A stretch of 64,000 nucleotides of DNA from an uncultured Hoeflea sp. (GCF_963975635.1 NZ_CAXBIE010000014.1); one strand, 5' to 3'. Positions 10,520 through 57,287 are shown, numbered from the stretch's first letter. Translations and numbers: made by a program. Notes: generated by a model not told the origin, from the letters alone.

Positions 10520-11431
10520 TCATGTCAATCGGGGCTCGACAGCGCGCCAATATCGCCGTGGGGCATCCCCGTATATGCGTTTGAACGCATGTCCAAAAGC
10601 GCTCTCCGAGGAATACCCGACCTCGGAGGCAACGGCGGCAACCGTCAATCCACGGCGCAGCGAGGCTCGCGCCAGTCGCATTCGCCAGCGGAGAAGATAG
10701 TCAAGCGGGGCGATACCGACCAAAAACTTGAAATGTTTCGAGAAAGCGGATCGTGACATTGCCACCGAACCAGCCAACACGTCCAAGCTCCATGGATAGG
10801 CGGGGTCGCCATGCATCAGCCCGATAGCCTTGCCTATACGCGCATCGGCCAGCGCACTGATCCAGCCGAAGTTCTCGCTGCTGTCTTGAGCCAAGGCTGC
10901 CCGAAGAACCTGGACAAGAAGAACATCCACAAGCCGGTCGGTGAGCACGGCTGCGCCGATCTGCGTTCCCCTGATTTCCAAGTCGAGAATATTGAGCGTG
11001 GAACGAACGACGGCTGCAGAGGCATTCCGCGACGGGATCAGCAGAAAACGGGGCAGCGAACCCAATAGCAGTTCAGCATCGGATGCCTCGAAACTGAAGG
11101 TACCGGCGATTAGAACAGTGTCATCGCCACCGTGGTGTGCGACGTCCGATTGCGCCCAGTCGAACGCGGCGATCCCGTCTTGGGGAGGGCTGTGGTCATC
11201 GTTTGCCAGAACGTAACTCGGCGCGTTGGCCAGAAGAAAGCAGTCCCCTGCTGCAAGCTGATGGCGTTGCCCGTCGCTGAAGTCTATCCAGCAATCGCCA
11301 TGCACGACCGCGCCGAACTTGAACGCAGGCTTGGCAGGGAACCGGTATGACCATCGTCCGCTCGCCTCAAACCGCGTGCAACGCGCACCTCGGATGTTGA
11401 GCAGAGAGAACACTTGTGACAGTGGGTCCAT
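10520..11431 (-). CDS. AraC-family transcriptional regulator with N-terminal cupin domain
   Basis: Likely start MDPLSQVFSLL (ORF track starts 11497); C-terminal AraC HTH (MSRSAFSKHF, VGYSSESAFGHAFKR); divergent from SDR. Confidence 0.9.
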   Translation of the reverse strand: MDPLSQVFSLLNIRGARCTRFEASGRWSYRFPAKPAFKFGAVVHGDCWIDFSDGQRHQLAAGDCFLLANAPSYVLANDDHSPPQDGIAAFDWAQSDVAHHGGDDTVLIAGTFSFEASDAELLLGSLPRFLLIPSRNASAAVVRSTLNILDLEIRGTQIGAAVLTDRLVDVLLVQVLRAALAQDSSENFGWISALADARIGKAIGLMHGDPAYPWSLDVLAGSVAMSRSAFSKHFKFLVGIAPLDYLLRWRMRLARASLRRGLTVAAVASEVGYSSESAFGHAFKRIYGDAPRRYWRAVEPRLT

Positions 11432-48972: not shown

Positions 48973-49054
48973 GATGCGGTCTCCCTGGCGTGGCGCAGTT
49001 TGGATGTTGATATCCCACCATGCTGTGCGCCGCGCCCTGGCGCATTGATCCGTA

Positions 49055-50746: not shown

Positions 50747-50833
50747 GCGGACGTGGCGAAACTGGTAGACGCAAGGGACTTAAAATCCCTCGGCCGCGAG
50801 GCTGTACGGGTTCGATTCCCGTCGTCCGCACCA
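50747..50833 (+). tRNA. tRNA-Leu(UAA)
   Basis: Acceptor stem GCGGACG/CGTCCGC, anticodon arm AGGGA-CTTAAAA-TCCCT, long variable arm, ACGGG-TTCGATT-CCCGT, encoded CCA. Confidence 0.97.
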
Positions 50834-50841
50834 TTTCGCCT

Positions 50842-50990
50842 CTAAGTTATTGATTTTACATGGGGTGAGGGGCGGATTCCTGAAAGGTGAGGGGCGTCTT
50901 TGTTCTGCACCTTTTCCATTCCGCTTTTTGCCAGTCGCGTCCGGTCAGATGTACGGGTGTAGAGCGAGGCCATTCCGCCGCCTGTCAGAT
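50842..50990 (-). pseudogene. C-terminal remnant of a tyrosine integrase
   Basis: Minus strand reads TGGGMASLYTRTSDRTRLAKSGMEKVQNK... to TAG at 50842-50844, matching the GW.G..MA.LYTR.ADR.RLA tail; similarity is lost upstream. Confidence 0.75.
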
Positions 50991-51148
50991 CACATCTGAA
51001 CCACTACAGATAGAAACGGTGCTTTCTGAGAAGAGATCGCTACAGATTGATGCTCTGAACGCCGCCACTTCGTCGGATGACCTGCGATCAATTCCGAGTA
51101 ATCGGCTTGATGCTTACGAAAATTAAAGGGCTAATGCGGCGCTTTGCG

Positions 51149-52213
51149 CTATTTCGCGTTTTTCAGATATTGCCTGTAATTATTCGCGTAAACCTTGTTA
51201 GCATAGATATGAAGAAGGCAGGCTTCGACTTCCGCGAATTCACTCTCGGCTCTTGCTTCGGGCGTCGGGAACTTCTTGAAATTCTTCAAATTCATAGCCG
51301 CTGCAATCTTCTTATTCATGATGCCTCGTGCTTCTTTCTTCGCTGCCTCAAAAAGCGGGTCTTGAGGTGATTTTGCATTAGGCCCGGCCAGCAGTTGAAC
51401 GGCTGCGATAAACGAAAACTGGGTAAAATGTTTCAGTTCATCCTTGAGTCGGGTCGGGGCATTCGCCTTTGCCTCCAGAACATCCAGATAGACCTGTTTG
51501 TCGCCACCCTTCTGGATTTCTTGATCGTAGTGCAGAAAGGTGTAAACACATTCTGCAAACCGCCTGCCGTCCTTCTCCGATTTCCTACGGACTGCGGTGT
51601 TGGGACCTTTTTTCTTTTCAATCTCGGCGGCCTTGGCGTCCTCTACTGCTTTCTTCTTTGCTCGCTCCTTCTTGCGCTTTTCTTCTGCGACCATCACGCT
51701 CTGTTCGGCAGCAGAGGCAGCACTTTGGCCTGCAGCTTCATCCATGCGTTCGTAAAGCGTTTTCGATGCGTTCTCGATATCCTTTCGGATCAGGGAGAGC
51801 AGATGTGCCCTGTCCTTGACCTGAATCTCACTGAACCCGAACCGGGTTCCGTAGACCGTGATGGAAGAACCGTCATTTTCCAGTCTGAAAGCTTGAAGAT
51901 AATAGTGTGTTTCCGAGCGTTTCAGTGCGGCAATCAGAAAGTCTTCTTGGTCGCCTGGATCAATCACCGCCTTTATGCTGCCGTCTGCTTTCCGATTGTC
52001 CTTGACGTTGTATCTAGCAATTTTCACGAGCGAACCGTCGCGCTCGAGCGTGAGGACATAATCGCCATTGGAGGACTGATAAACGGCACGATCGTCAGCA
52101 AAGACGGTGCGCATGTCAACGCTTTCAAATTCGCTAATGATTTTGTCGTCGCCGACATAACAGCCTGAGATAAGGAGAAGGCAGATTACGGAAAAAAGCT
52201 TATAGATTTTCAT
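51149..52213 (-). CDS. hypothetical lipoprotein (354 aa) with charged coiled-coil linker
   Basis: Signal MKIYKLFSVICLLLISG-C; EEKRKKERAKKKAVEDAKAAEIEKKK linker. Confidence 0.8.
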   Translation of the reverse strand: MKIYKLFSVICLLLISGCYVGDDKIISEFESVDMRTVFADDRAVYQSSNGDYVLTLERDGSLVKIARYNVKDNRKADGSIKAVIDPGDQEDFLIAALKRSETHYYLQAFRLENDGSSITVYGTRFGFSEIQVKDRAHLLSLIRKDIENASKTLYERMDEAAGQSAASAAEQSVMVAEEKRKKERAKKKAVEDAKAAEIEKKKGPNTAVRRKSEKDGRRFAECVYTFLHYDQEIQKGGDKQVYLDVLEAKANAPTRLKDELKHFTQFSFIAAVQLLAGPNAKSPQDPLFEAAKKEARGIMNKKIAAAMNLKNFKKFPTPEARAESEFAEVEACLLHIYANKVYANNYRQYLKNAK

Positions 52214-52922
52214 GTTGAAATAATCAAATTTCGTCGTTGCCTTGTCAAGGGATCAGGACAAAGGACGACCGTTGATTGCTCGGAGGAAAGGTACCTCTCA
52301 TTGGCCTTGTCTGGCATGGCAATTGGCTTTTTGGCACCTAGAGCCCGTTTGCGGCCACCGCGAATGCTCTTGTGGTGCGATTTTAGGCTATGCTCGGCGA
52401 GTGAGGGCGGCATTGGTGTGGGGAATTTGGTATTCCTGTCCCAATGTGGGGGAGGGCGCAGCGGGCTTCATATTGCGGCGCGTCTGGCTTCGTGAAAGAC
52501 ATAGCTGAGCATGTTATAGATGATATCGGACACCGACTGAGCTGTGGTGTCACCGTTGACCGCGCTCAACCGCTGATACCGTTCTACCGATCCCAGAACC
52601 TAGGCTGCCCAGGCATCATCCACTTCCTGCAAATCACACCAATTGGATTGAATCACGATTTGTCGATAAGGGAGGTTTTAATCGGGCGTCCGAACGCACC
52701 TTCGCTTGGCTGGGGAGATGCTGCAGGCTGGCCAGGGGGGCAGGGAGAAATACATCCGGCTGTTCTGCAGCATTGATCCTCATGGCCGATATCCCCATGC
52801 TCTTGCGACGATTTGTAAGGCCTTGTAATAGCAGAAAAGCTTTTGAATCAGACTCTCAGGAATGCGTGCCAAGATCGTCTAAGATTCCGCGCCAAAGTAG
52901 GTTTCAAATTTGAAACGTAGAG

Positions 52923-53645
52923 CTACTGTTTGTTGATGAGCTTTTCTCTCTCAATAGCCCCAATTTCCTTGAGAAGAGATAGCCTTTTAACCCTGTCTGC
53001 TGCCTTTTTCGTAAGTATTTTTTCTTCGCGATTACGTTTTAAAAATTTCTCAGCAGCTTCTTTTGAGTTTGGATCCGAATAGTCATAAATATTATAATCC
53101 ATAGACACGGAGATTAGGTTCGTTCCGATCATTTTCTGCATGTACAAAAAAAGTTTCCTGATATTTTCTGCTTTGTCTTTCGGATCACTTAGGGTGTTTC
53201 TGTATAGCTCCGAAATCTTCAGATTACGTGGCATCTTTCCCGTGGTTGCATCAGGACTCAGTATATATCCGGTAAATTCATTTTTTGTAATTTTGGCAAG
53301 TGTTTGGTAGTATTGGGTTCCATTTCTTGGTGATGTTGATTCAACGATATAAAAATCATCGCTTAAATGAGAAAACCTAATATTGAGTTTCTCAAATTTG
53401 AGGAAACCTTCAGACATAACTGAATTTGTCGTATCAATTAGGTATTCATTGTCGAACTTACGTATGCGAATGAAATCATAATCTTTTTCTTTTTTTCCTT
53501 TTCTACTAATTTTCGATTTTGATATGGCGATCCCATCTCCGTTCAGGGGGAATTCGGACGTTTCAATTATGCTACTCTCGCCAGTCACGCAGCCGGAGAT
53601 GACAGGTAGCGTCAAAAGCAATAAAGCCAGAATAATGCGGAACAT
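52923..53645 (-). CDS. hypothetical lipoprotein (240 aa)
   Basis: Probable start MFRIILALLLLTLPVISG-C with RBS AAGGGG (ORF track extends to 53831); basic helical C-terminus. Confidence 0.8.
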   Translation of the reverse strand: MFRIILALLLLTLPVISGCVTGESSIIETSEFPLNGDGIAISKSKISRKGKKEKDYDFIRIRKFDNEYLIDTTNSVMSEGFLKFEKLNIRFSHLSDDFYIVESTSPRNGTQYYQTLAKITKNEFTGYILSPDATTGKMPRNLKISELYRNTLSDPKDKAENIRKLFLYMQKMIGTNLISVSMDYNIYDYSDPNSKEAAEKFLKRNREEKILTKKAADRVKRLSLLKEIGAIEREKLINKQ

Positions 53646-53888
53646 CTTATGCCCCTTGGGTGTGTAATGGCTAATGGTCATCGCGTACAAGGGGTTTTGT
53701 ATTGCTGTAAGCACATTCGATTTTGCCTTATCCGCATAACACCGCTCTGCCTTGAAACAGGTGCGCCGCTTTGGATGTGTGTCTTGTTCATGCAGCTTGC
53801 CATTCCGTCGTCTCTTCATAAGTTTGCCCATAATGAAACCTGTCGATCGTCATGGAATAGTTCGACTTGGATAGCCTGCACATAACAT

Positions 53889-55250
53889 TCAATTACCTTC
53901 AGCAGCGTTTCTATCCGGAGACCTGAGGAGACAATTGAAAATGTTTTCGTATTTTCCTAATGTCATCCCCGGTACAAATGAGCCGCTTTTTTCGGCTTTA
54001 TTAAACTGGGCGAATTGGACTTCGACATTTGGGAATACAACCTTGTTTCCCTTGTTAATCTCATTAAATGCAAAGCATACGGTCCCTGTTTGAGCTGATG
54101 AATCATAATCATTTATGCAAAGCTGCTGAGACTTGATGGCAAAAAATCCTTGATTGACCATCTCAGAGGACCATTTGATTAAAAGATATGGCTTGTCATC
54201 ATAGAAGTCGTAATTCATCGTCTTTGTCAGATATCGATGAAATTTTGAATTCCTTATTTTTGCTTCCTCTATCGGATGGTCAAGTTTGTCGAGCAACTGG
54301 TTTATGCCGTTGGATCCGTCCGGATTAGCGTTTCTTATGCTCTCTCGAACTTCGGTAGAGCTTGGAATCCAACTTTTTCTGTCAATGACGGTGATGATCC
54401 CAGCGCCATGACCGGATTTGTCTGGGCTGCCAAACAAAATCACCAGATTCTGCACGTCGCTATCGGGTTGGCACAAGCCGAAGACGTTCCATTCGAGGCT
54501 TTTGCTGAAAGCCTGACGCGCTTGTTCTTGTTCAGATGTGAGCTCGGATCGGATTTCTTTAAAGACATCGCTTTCATTCATGGATGAAAGTCGCTGACGT
54601 TCTAGAGCCGCCGCCGTGCGCTCTTGCTGCTCACGCTCCGCATCTAGCCGCTTTTTTTCTCTCTCGCGCCTACGGCGCTCGTTCTGACGCTTTATCTCCG
54701 CTTCTTGGGCGGCTAGCTCTTCCTTGGTCGGTTGGACGCCTACGAGCGGGAGGGCATCTTTTGGAATCTCACCTGTCAGATTCATTGTGAAGTGTGTGTT
54801 GTAGCCACCGTAGATGTTCACCGATGCCGGCACCAGGACATATCCCGCCGAGCAGGAGCGATCATTCTGCTGCCGGGCCCGGTAGCTAAAGTCGCTGAGA
54901 TCGGCCGATACACAGAACTCTGACCGAAGGCCGTATTTATAGCCCCTTTGAATGTCGATCTTTAGAGGAACAAAGCCGTTGCCTCTGCGGACCGCAACGA
55001 GAATATGCTTGGTCCAGCCCTGCGAGACCCGAGTATCGTAGCAACTTTTAAAGAGGTTTCTGGTGCCTAGGGCTGTCCATCCAGCTGTGGGATAGCCGCC
55101 CCCGGTCAAAATTCCGTCTTCCGTGCGTACAGCTATATAGAGTGTTTCGTTCGACTCATTACATAGTGAAATATCAGTCTCATAAGGAGAGGCTTTCGCG
55201 GCGAGAGGACATAAGACAAACAGAAAGCACAAAAAACGCAGCATGCCCAA
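53889..55250 (-). CDS. exported protein with DUF1036-like N-terminal domain, coiled coil and unknown C-terminal domain
   Basis: Sec signal (AKA cleavage), LCNES..TLYIAV...GWTAL...C pattern, ERRRREREKKRLDAEREQQER coil. Confidence 0.75.
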   Translation of the reverse strand: MGMLRFLCFLFVLCPLAAKASPYETDISLCNESNETLYIAVRTEDGILTGGGYPTAGWTALGTRNLFKSCYDTRVSQGWTKHILVAVRRGNGFVPLKIDIQRGYKYGLRSEFCVSADLSDFSYRARQQNDRSCSAGYVLVPASVNIYGGYNTHFTMNLTGEIPKDALPLVGVQPTKEELAAQEAEIKRQNERRRREREKKRLDAEREQQERTAAALERQRLSSMNESDVFKEIRSELTSEQEQARQAFSKSLEWNVFGLCQPDSDVQNLVILFGSPDKSGHGAGIITVIDRKSWIPSSTEVRESIRNANPDGSNGINQLLDKLDHPIEEAKIRNSKFHRYLTKTMNYDFYDDKPYLLIKWSSEMVNQGFFAIKSQQLCINDYDSSAQTGTVCFAFNEINKGNKVVFPNVEVQFAQFNKAEKSGSFVPGMTLGKYENIFNCLLRSPDRNAAEGN

Positions 55251-55784
55251 AATCCTTTGACTTAATCACCCGTTGCCGCACAAATTTCGTAAAATAGGTG
55301 GAAATTATCCCTCGGTGTTTTGTCATACAAACCGGCGCACCTCCCGGTAAGATCGCGGGCAACGCATTTCAACTCGCATGCTGACGCCAATTCAGTCAAT
55401 GCCATGTCGCGTTTGAGTTTGAAGAAATCTCGACCATATAAAGTGTAACTGATGGCCTGAGACCCGTCTCTCCTCTTGCTATTCGGAGAATTGGTTAGAT
55501 TGCTGAGTTGCTACCCGATTTTGGATCGCCCGGCTGCAAATTCTCCGGGGTTAATGTTCAGGCCGACCGAGTGACGCCAAAGCGGTTCGTCTTGGATTTA
55601 GCCTGCTCGGAGGATCAGTTTGGTAAATCGGTGAGGGGCTCGTTCCGAGTTGATCAATGAAATCAACAGGCTTTTTCAGTAGGTGAGGGGTGTCAAGTTG
55701 TTGTAATCTTTGGCTTTTGCAACACCCGTCGTCCGCACCATCCCTGTCAAGCAATGCTCAACAGGCGCGGACCTGAGCCGTGGT

Positions 55785-57287
55785 TCAGCTGTTGATCTTG
55801 AAGCCGATGCGCAGGCCGCCCCAGTGGCGTCCGTTGATGATGATCGGGGCAGAAAGATCTTTCATCAGGCTGAACTTGCCGCCGCCCATGTCGCGCCGGT
55901 AGGTTTGTAGCAGGAATGGCTTCTGGTTGCGCCCGGCGGAGAGCCCGGTGCGGTCATTGAAGATCCGCCGGTTGCGGCAATTTCCGGCATTCCAGACCGG
56001 ATCGTCACTCTGCGGCTGGGAATAGATGTGGTTGTGCGTGGGCAGATAGCCGTTGCGGTCGATCGCCGCGCAGAAGGTGACGCGCGGATCGAAATCCAGC
56101 ATGGCCTCCTGAATGGGCGGCAGCAGACGGTCGGTGTGTTTGGTGAACCGTGTCATGTGCTGCTGCGGATTGGTACCGGCGATCGGCTGATAGGCCTCGT
56201 CAAACAGATCCGACAGCGACAATGCTCCCGAGGCGACCGCCTGTTCGAATATCGCGCCGACTTCCTGCGCCTTTGCGATGCAGTGGCGGATGAGGGGGGT
56301 GTCCTCGGTTTCGATCCCGCTCTGGGCAACTTCGCCGATCACGTTTTCGGAGAAGGAGACCAGATGGTCGATCTTGGAACTGGCGGCGGTCAGCATCTCG
56401 GCGCTGGTGTGAACCTGCTTGTCGAGATCGGACACCTTGGCGAGGACTGTCGAGCAGGCTCTTGTGGTTTCCTCGACCGGATCGCTGATCCGTTCGATCT
56501 CGCTGATCATGCCGGCCACGGTCTGGCTGAAGCCGGTGAATTTCTGCAGTTCTTCGTCAATTTCTGTGGACCGCTGGTGCGCTGCGGTCGCCACCGTCTC
56601 GTTCTCGACGTTCTGCTTCTGCAGCTTGTCGACGATGGTGCGCAGAGCATCAAGCCGCGAGACGATGTCGCGCGACACGGTGCTCGTCTTGTCCGCCAAT
56701 TGCTTGACGGCATCGGCAACAACCGCAAAGCCGCGGCCGGATTCACCCGCATGGGCCGCCATGATGCCGGCATTGACGGCCAGCAGCTGGGTCTGAGTGG
56801 CAATGCCTTGAATCGATTGGGAAAACGAGTGGATATCCTTGATCTGACCAGAGACGGAATCAAGAACGCCGGTGATTTCGGTGGCGCTGGTTGCCATCGA
56901 CTTGATGTCGGAGACCGCGTTGCCGAGAATGCCGTGAACGCTCTGGGTTGTGGCGTCGAGCCCGGCCTTGGTGGATTTGGCCGATTCGATGGCCCCGCGG
57001 GAGGCATCCGCGACCGTCTGGTTGGAGCGCGCAATCATCGAAATGTCACGGGTCAGGGCGTGAAACTCTTCGGCCTGCCTTGACATTGAACTGGAGACGT
57101 CGCCGACCATCCCGCTGGTATCGGCGATGTTGACCGACAATTCGCCGACCTGCGAGCCGATGACGTTCATGGCTCTTTCGAGCCGTGCGCGGTCCTCATC
57201 GGAACCTGTCAGATCACGCAGATCGTCGGATCCGTCAGGTCGATGGTCGTCCGTTTCATCAGCAAAAGATACCTGCAAAGCGTGCAT
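55785..57287 (-). CDS. soluble methyl-accepting chemotaxis protein with C-terminal Cache-like domain
   Basis: No TM; [30 protein letters not shown] core; C-terminal [10 protein letters not shown]...NRRIFND...WGGLRIGF. Confidence 0.9.

Follow-up and report, generated by a model that had tools for sequence, protein, structure and literature searches.

The 64,000 nucleotide (nt) stretch of DNA analyzed here, termed the window, comes from an uncultured Hoeflea sp. (GCF_963975635.1 NZ_CAXBIE010000014.1) and carries an islet of approximately 4.9 kb next to a tRNA-Leu(UAA) gene. The islet appears to be the decayed remnant of a temperate phage, i.e. of a tyrosine-integrase element that had inserted at the 3′ end of the tRNA gene (probability approximately 0.8). 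Descent from another element that carried the same integrase module is less likely. What is directly observed is the anatomy of the islet, ends that are homologous to those of an intact prophage, sites that are empty in related species and an assembly that lacks a cognate integrase. The remaining order of features is attL with two arm sites, a fragment of the integrase gene (int′), a fragment of a higB-like gene (higB′), predicted lipoprotein gene A, insertion sequence (IS) debris of the IS5 family, predicted lipoprotein gene B, the DUF1036-like gene C, two further arm sites, and attR (Table 1). The islet is single-copy in its own genome.

The 3′ ends of tRNA genes are standard targets of tyrosine-integrase elements. 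The tRNA-Leu(UAA) gene is the sole tRNA gene that ARAGORN detects in the window, and an Rfam scan of the window shows the same tRNA and nothing else. The core sequence CCCGTCGTCCGCACCAT is found directly repeated at both borders of the islet. With two or fewer mismatches allowed, there are 2 copies in the window compared with 0 in 100 shuffles, and the 5.1-Mb, 184-contig assembly contains the sequence just twice, at the two islet borders. No further degenerate copies of the core are present between positions 49000 and 58000 when 4 mismatches are allowed. The islet also differs from its surroundings in composition, with a G+C content of 0.475 (0.372 in open reading frame (ORF) B) compared with 0.595–0.60 in the flanks. 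These data bear on the simplest alternative, a chance repeat situated beside a compositionally odd native region with no mobile element involved. Nothing favors it beyond the lack of an intact integrase, and it is contradicted by the shuffles, where the expected number of copies of a 17-nt exact tRNA-end repeat is 0, by the homology of the arms and of an integrase tail to a prophage, and by the congeners with empty sites. That reading is considered refuted, with hardly any probability left to it.

The initial annotation had described a tyrosine-integrase element at the tRNA 3′ end, with an exact 17-bp repeat of the tRNA end at both borders and an AT-richer interior, that had lost almost all of its mobility genes and kept both att sites and three cargo genes. 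The repeat finder, the shuffles and the whole-assembly search bear out the repeat, and the G+C values agree with the composition described. Three intact ORFs are indeed present amid a broken int and IS debris. The integrase tail, the core length, the arms homologous to a 55-kb prophage and the empty sites all support the type of element proposed. The annotation also stated that no intact integrase, replication or structural gene is present. None is intact, but a C-terminal remnant of the integrase, approximately 45 codons in length, does exist on the minus strand.

The translated integrase remnant is 53 amino acids (aa) long (WFRCDLTGGGMASLYTRTSDRTRLAKSGMEKVQNKDAPHLSGIRPSPHVKSIT, followed by the stop codon) and includes the catalytic tyrosine motif LYTR. 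Its stop codon lies 7 nt from the attL core. The tyrosine recombinase profile PF00589 gives no match in the islet. A search of the genus shows that the tail shares a 67% identity (E-value = 2e-16) with the C-terminus of an intact 359 aa ORF in another Hoeflea genome (G002:C12). This ORF ends with the sequence HGIRKLAATR...GGTMASLYTKTVDRTRLARQGMERLRNTNAPHLAGSRPSPSIKSDG, is assigned as an integrase by PHROGs (E-value = 1e-33), and its stop codon is situated 8 nt from a tRNA-Leu(GAG) gene. When 150 genomes of the bacterial family were searched with the 53 aa tail, the three best-placed matches are to the extreme C-terminus of ORFs of 346–414 aa, which carry the integrase motifs HG(L/V)RK...Y and have a convergent tRNA gene directly after each. 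A back-translation scan of GTDB alphaproteobacteria yields 11 further relatives of the tail. All except one form the C-terminus of an ORF of integrase size that is convergent with a tRNA gene 60–200 nt downstream (10/11; six Leu-GAG, three Tyr and one Met). From these similarities, what the islet keeps is judged to be the terminal ~45 codons of an integrase gene belonging to this tRNA-convergent family, in the geometry typical of the family. The deletion junction is placed near position 50990 since the integrase similarity stops there.

The integrases of the tail family adjoin genes for tRNA-Leu(GAG), tRNA-Tyr, tRNA-Met and tRNA-Arg(TCT), and most of the targets are class II tRNAs, which have a long variable arm. 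A truncated integrase of the same family is found beside tRNA-Leu(GAG) in a different Hoeflea species (G016:C11:~417584-417724). It has an open frame of 160 aa that is 47% identical to the tail and may represent another decayed element.

The element in G002, which is Hoeflea sp. MAG (metagenome-assembled genome) HK-STAS-PROT-46, spans 55 kb of contig JACKJT010000002.1 (G002:C12:29958-84924). It is a tailed prophage that encodes a portal, a head maturation protease, a tape measure protein, a primase and the integrase, and is bounded on both sides by the 17-nt repeat CTTCTCGACCGCACCAT. With blastn and tblastx, the match between the islet and this prophage is confined to the two ends. On the attL side the alignment is gapless over approximately 173 nt with an identity of ~70%, and the attR arm, which includes GGTGAGGGGCTCGTTCC...CAATGnAATCAA, shows 78–86% identity. 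The islet resembles the G002 prophage in having int convergent with the tRNA gene and ending 7–8 nt away from it, in a 17-nt core that ends with CCGCACCAT, in an integrase C-terminus with 67% identity and in two homologous att arms. It differs in its target, tRNA-Leu(UAA) instead of tRNA-Leu(GAG), with the 5′ half of the core being CCCGTCGT in the islet and CTTCTCGA in G002. In addition, the G002 prophage is complete, having portal, protease, tape measure and primase genes, and has no interior gene in common with the islet.

Both arms carry a nonamer, GGTGAGGGG, which occurs 51 times in the 5.1-Mb genome with both strands counted (0.01 per kb). Four of the 51 copies are found in the islet. All four are on the plus strand and are less than 100 bp from an end. 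Two start 30 and 52 nt past the attL core and two start ahead of the attR core, by 95 and 43 nt, and the nonamers in attL and attR of the G002 prophage are placed in register with them.

A wider search for these end sequences yields little else. In 596 Gb of genomes, the pattern of the tRNA end plus two arm motifs gives 9 matches, which come from unrelated phyla, with none at the expected tRNA, and are essentially chance hits. A 17-mer of the attR arm gives 102 matches in the same genomes compared with ~70 expected by chance, the sole true match being that in G002. Viral contigs give 3 matches. The own genome of the islet (G000) displays two inverted GGTG(A/C)GGGG pairs at G000:C33:10187-10225 and 10968-11008, each pair ~40 nt apart, with 780 bp between the pairs. 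These are the only other clusters of GGTG(A/C)GGGG in the genome.

The site has also been compared in 24 other species of the genus, where both flanks are conserved with 72–85% DNA identity. An empty site, with the flanking chemotaxis gene less than ~150 bp after the tRNA gene, is present in many of these (G019, G014, G016, G007, G013, G001, G021, G006, G023, G022 and G009), all of them being species other than that of the islet. The joined flanks of the window align to G019, G014 and G007 with the same tRNA, a short spacer and the 3′ end of the chemotaxis gene. The interior of the islet, apart from IS fragments, is found in none of the 24 congeners. Two of the checks proposed in the initial annotation have been run: related species show an empty site, and a search of the genome reveals no intact cognate integrase in this assembly. 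The contrary situation that it considered, in which most relatives would carry the three genes in this place with no att duplication, is not what is found, as 0/24 congeners carry the interior and the products of ORFs A and B show no homologues. Two further assemblies agree with the window. A scaffold from Tara has 99.96% identity to it over 13.4 kb with zero differences inside the islet, and a third assembly carries an identical ORF C.

Other congeners display inserts of 0.9–27 kb after tRNA-Leu(UAA), and a second copy of the tRNA end in direct orientation is seen only in G008. The G008 insert (G008:C7:~54200-71670) is a prophage of ~17 kb with a terminase large subunit gene, bounded by a tRNA repeat of 37–67 nt. 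It is ruled out as the cognate element of the islet: its integrase, 396 aa in length and encoded at the far end, is unrelated (26% identity). Because of this unrelated integrase, at least two integrase families use tRNA-Leu(UAA) in Hoeflea. Inserts of 8–12 kb in G010, G015, G004 and G012 were considered as sister islands and rejected. They have no second core in direct orientation and share with the islet just an IS5 piece, in G012. The G012 insert (G012:C1:1040900-1049700) contains at positions 606–638 a 33-nt partial tRNA-Leu(UAA) 3′ end, which is inverted and lies ~7.4 kb from the tRNA gene with an IS5 fragment between; this may be an inversion or a rearranged island. In G002 itself, tRNA-Leu(UAA) is followed directly by CCATATTCCCCGGCAACCATCTGATTTCATGCATGGCGAGGGA, in a stretch of roughly 55 nt (locus G002:C12:535300-537300). 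It resembles the attL arm of the family, and there is no second copy of the core. This stretch suggests an older, more eroded scar and a previous use of the same site.

The interior of the islet shows evidence of extensive decay. Next to the integrase tail is a segment, truncated at both ends, with three weak similarities to toxins of toxin-antitoxin (TA) systems. Pfam gives HigB-like_toxin with an E-value of 0.21 (profile positions 21–56), PHROGs gives "toxin of TA system" with an E-value of 0.028 (positions 21–55), and tblastn yields matches at E-values of ~1, where 5/5 annotated records are RelE/ParE toxins. Each match is below threshold, and all agree on the same ~35 profile positions. From this agreement the segment is probably an internal fragment of a HigB/RelE-type toxin gene.

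The IS debris consists of fragments of two different IS5-family elements, neither of which has an intact frame. Positions 52375-52532 and 52558-52679 correspond to the 3′ end and the 5′ end, on the minus strand, of a gene for a 375 aa transposase (NF033581), an intact copy of which is found in G002. Positions 52691-52859, on the plus strand, represent the last ~55 codons of a 289 aa transposase (NF033580) and include ERTFAWLGRSRRLAKDWE and ERTFAWLGRC. The G002 copies of these ORFs are assigned to the IS5 family by NCBIfam, in agreement with plasmid matches annotated as IS5 family transposase, and the pieces match multiple copies in congeners. No traces of replication, structural, excisionase or conjugation genes are found in the interior by Pfam, NCBIfam and remnant-translation searches. 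NCBIfam gives no match on the remnant translations, and no relaxase, type IV secretion system (T4SS) or other remnant of conjugation is seen in the islet.

A series of steps would account for this anatomy. An ancestral phage, a member of the alphaproteobacterial family in which int reads towards the tRNA gene and stops a few nt away and in which arm sites of the GGTGAGGGG type lie to either side of the core, would have used its tyrosine integrase to recombine into the 3′ end of tRNA-Leu(UAA) across the 17-bp core. All phage functions would subsequently have been lost through deletions and insertions of IS5-family elements. The junction near 50990 would have cut int to its last ~45 codons, leaving these joined to part of a higB-like toxin gene. 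The three low-G+C genes that are left would be accessory ("moron") genes of the phage, kept by selection, whose products act at the envelope, e.g. in superinfection exclusion or surface modification. What persists would still be a formal substrate for excision, if a phage of the same att specificity supplied Int, and probably an excisionase, in trans.

Several points weigh against a phage origin or limit it. Neither the comparison to G002 nor PHROGs reveals homology between the interior of the islet and phage genes. Because of this, a descent of the cargo from the prophage, as opposed to a later arrival mediated by IS elements or by tandem accretion, is only inferred. The closest intact relative, in G002, uses a different tRNA-Leu isoacceptor, and none of the relatives of the tail in the family and GTDB scans belongs to an intact element that carries the Leu(UAA) core. 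The GGTGAGGGG motifs are candidate arm-type recombinase-binding sites by position and conservation only. The genome is that of a metagenome-assembled population, so that the bin may have failed to capture a cognate phage or plasmid. Finally, integrase modules pass between phages and other integrative elements, so that a prophage ancestor is the likeliest one, without proof.

The islet could accordingly be viewed as what is left of an integrative and conjugative element (ICE), an integrative and mobilizable element (IME) or a genomic island that shares just its integrase/att module with the Hoeflea prophage, in which case A, B and C would be island cargo. No gene of the interior is phage-like, fragments of TA toxins and IS5 debris are common in islands, and several congeners carry inserts of 0.9–27 kb after tRNA-Leu(UAA), all of which is consistent with such an origin. 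However, a tailed prophage is the sole intact relative with a match in integrase tail, core length and both arms, and no relaxase, T4SS or other remnant of conjugation is seen. An origin of this type is thus very unlikely, and a prophage remnant is preferred.

As to its capacity to move, a tblastn search of this genome with the closest intact integrase finds the remnant alone. The remaining tyrosine recombinases encoded in the assembly, XerC/XerD-like proteins plus three unrelated ones, reach at most 31% identity, confined to short stretches. The islet is therefore judged, on its gene content, to be unable to move by itself, and excision would need an integrase from outside since no cognate one is present in the assembly. 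The G002 integrase is not expected to act on the islet because its core differs in the 5′ half despite the shared arm motifs, and no member of the tail family situated at tRNA-Leu(UAA) was found in the family and GTDB scans. With the cores and the four arm motifs intact, excision in trans, which the initial annotation had considered, appears possible in principle, with no known helper.

The intact ends also allow a different reading, in which the islet is a hitch-hiking mini-element, a counterpart in the phage world of cis-mobilizable elements (CIMEs) or of satellites. The cores and arms would then be kept by selection, since helper phages with an integrase of the same family would regularly excise, and perhaps transfer, the three envelope genes. 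Both 17-nt cores are identical and the four arm motifs are perfect even though all else that is mobile has decayed. The genus hosts intact phages of the integrase family, and the islet is identical across independent Tara assemblies. But an integrase tail that abuts a toxin fragment and IS debris looks like the result of an accidental deletion rather than a streamlined design, and perfect short repeats are also expected if the decay is recent. Further, the genomes and metagenomes searched contain neither another copy nor a relative of the islet, Pfam, NCBIfam, PADLOC and PHROGs show no packaging, regulatory or excisionase gene, and the family and GTDB scans reveal no helper with the Leu(UAA) core. 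Such a mini-element is unlikely. Its more specific form would be a phage-dependent cis-mobilizable cassette, whose sites are selected so that superinfecting phages with the "LYTR-tail" integrase excise and spread three orphan envelope proteins, e.g. exclusion factors. This form is decidedly unlikely; if it held true, the concept of CIMEs, drawn from conjugative elements of Firmicutes, would widen to take in prophages of marine Alphaproteobacteria. The decayed prophage is again the reading that is favored.

Table 1. Features of the islet and its target gene; positions are counted from the first nucleotide of the window.
Feature	Position	Strand	Evidence or remark
tRNA-Leu(UAA), integration target	50747-50833	+	ARAGORN; Rfam tRNA, 61 bits
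attL core, 17-nt exact direct repeat CCCGTCGTCCGCACCAT	50818-50834	+	Repeat finder; equals the last 16 nt of the tRNA plus 1 nt
Tyrosine integrase C-terminal remnant, ~45 codons (GGGMASLYTRTSDRTRLAKSGMEKV...APHLSGIRPSPHVKSIT, stop)	50842-50990	-	67% identity to the end of the G002 integrase
Two GGTGAGGGG(C) motifs, candidate attL arm-type sites	50864-50894 (starts 50864, 50886)	+	Within the reading frame of the integrase tail
Probable internal fragment of a HigB/RelE-type toxin gene (...LQIDALNAATSSDDLRSIPSNRLDAYEN, stop), truncated at both ends	51007-51126	+	Three weak matches
ORF A, 354 aa, predicted lipoprotein	51149-52213	-	Signal peptide and lipobox ISG/C read from the sequence
IS debris, fragments of two different IS5-family elements	52375-52860	both	blastn to intact G002 copies, 72–84% identity
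ORF B, predicted lipoprotein, 240 aa if counted from the Met codon at 53645 (frame open upstream to 53831)	52923-53645	-	Signal peptide and the same lipobox, ISG/C
ORF C, 451–453 aa, exported three-part protein (predicted)	53889-55250	-	Signal peptide; AlphaFold2 model; homologue alignment
Two GGTGAGGGG motifs in the conserved attR arm (GGTGAGGGGCTCGTTCC...CAATGnAATCAA...)	55630-55690 (starts 55630, 55682)	+	Match to the G002 attR arm
attR core, second copy of the 17-nt repeat CCCGTCGTCCGCACCAT	55725-55741	+	Repeat finder

The three long intact ORFs are all encoded on the minus strand, and their products are predicted to be exported or envelope proteins. In ORF A, the lipobox is followed by an N-terminal part rich in beta structure, then by a helix rich in K and E and by a C-terminus that is helical. 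A single-sequence AlphaFold2 (AF2) model of this protein is poor, with a predicted local distance difference test score (pLDDT) of 44. A promoter-like sequence, TTGACA-17-GATTAT, is situated directly upstream of ORF A (52248-52220). ORFs A and B give no significant match in Pfam, NCBIfam, PADLOC or PHROGs, and no homologue of either is found in 5.8 billion protein clusters, where A matches just itself. A relationship of the two as paralogues is not supported, as the BLASTP E-value of 1.1 is not significant apart from the neighborhood of the lipobox.

ORF C displays a beta domain with four Cys residues at approximately aa positions 20–160, a charged helix at positions 174–250 (~75 residues) and an alpha/beta C-terminal domain in the AF2 model (pLDDT 78). 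The model shows no match to PDB folds at an E-value < 0.01, with TM-scores below 0.4. One full-length homologue is found, with 34% identity, on a short metagenome contig beside an acyl-CoA-synthetase-type gene, which is a different context. Approximately 15 further proteins match the N-terminal domain alone and have four invariant Cys in the pattern CN...GW...C...C...C. The family, with 17 representatives among 1.84 billion, consists of exported proteins with the 4-Cys beta domain followed by variable charged coiled coils. Seven of the 17 members weakly match DUF1036 (PF06282), the best E-value of 0.037 being below threshold, and ORF C itself is unmatched in Pfam.

None of the three ORFs matches a PADLOC defense model at an E-value of 0.1 or better, NCBIfam also shows none, and the islet is not a recognized defense island. 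A, B and C might, very tentatively, be genes of the lysogenic-conversion type that provide exclusion or surface modification. They may have been kept by selection, as suggested in the initial annotation, the sole argument being the survival of three long, unbroken ORFs within AT-rich DNA in which every mobility gene around them is broken. Outside the islet, the left flank has a CinA-like gene with a MoCF/FAD-synthase domain and a gene for a WrbA-type flavodoxin, and the right flank has a gene for a methyl-accepting chemotaxis protein, ending at 55785.

The islet is a grounded integrative element at a tRNA gene, which is a well-known kind, and opens no new question. What it adds is detail, i.e. 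the integrase tail, the homologous prophage, the arm motif, the two kinds of IS5 debris, the higB-like fragment and the orphan exported cargo. It shows how far a prophage may erode while still being a formal substrate for recombination, from 55 kb to 4.9 kb with ~45 codons of int. It also defines a 17-bp core and the GGTGAGGGG arm motif for an alphaproteobacterial family of phage integrases that targets tRNA-Leu, tRNA-Tyr, tRNA-Met and tRNA-Arg genes. In practice, it is chiefly of use for annotation, and provides an integrase remnant, IS5 debris, an att map and three exported ORFans for a Hoeflea population of marine origin sampled by Tara Oceans. Surprises are mild and confined to the two lipoprotein genes being complete orphans and to the perfect att sites.

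The grounded prophages of Escherichia coli K-12 are cryptic or defective prophage remnants at tRNA genes. The islet is similar to cryptic prophage remnants in having been inserted into the 3′ end of a tRNA gene by means of a tyrosine integrase, in the duplicated core, in the loss of lytic and mobility genes via deletion and IS elements, and in the few low-G+C accessory genes that are kept. It differs from them in its extreme reduction, to 4.9 kb and ~45 int codons, yet with both cores and all arm motifs intact, and in that its genes are complete orphans, two of them with no homologue in 5.8 billion clusters. It differs from phage satellites, such as phage-inducible chromosomal islands (PICIs) or P4-like elements, in having no integrase, regulator, helper-hijacking or packaging gene by Pfam, NCBIfam and PHROG searches. 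A structural parallel can also be drawn with CIMEs. As in these, attL and attR are kept while the genes of recombination/integration and transfer are lost, so that the islet fits the structural definition exactly, and its re-mobilization could come about only through the arrival of an element of matching att specificity that supplies a recombinase or integrates beside it. CIMEs, however, are defined for decayed ICEs and IMEs of Firmicutes that move by accretion with conjugative elements, whereas the nearest intact relative of the islet is an alphaproteobacterial tailed prophage, and remnants of conjugation are not seen. By this analogy, the islet would be a prophage remnant that behaves like a CIME and is not a CIME in the strict sense.

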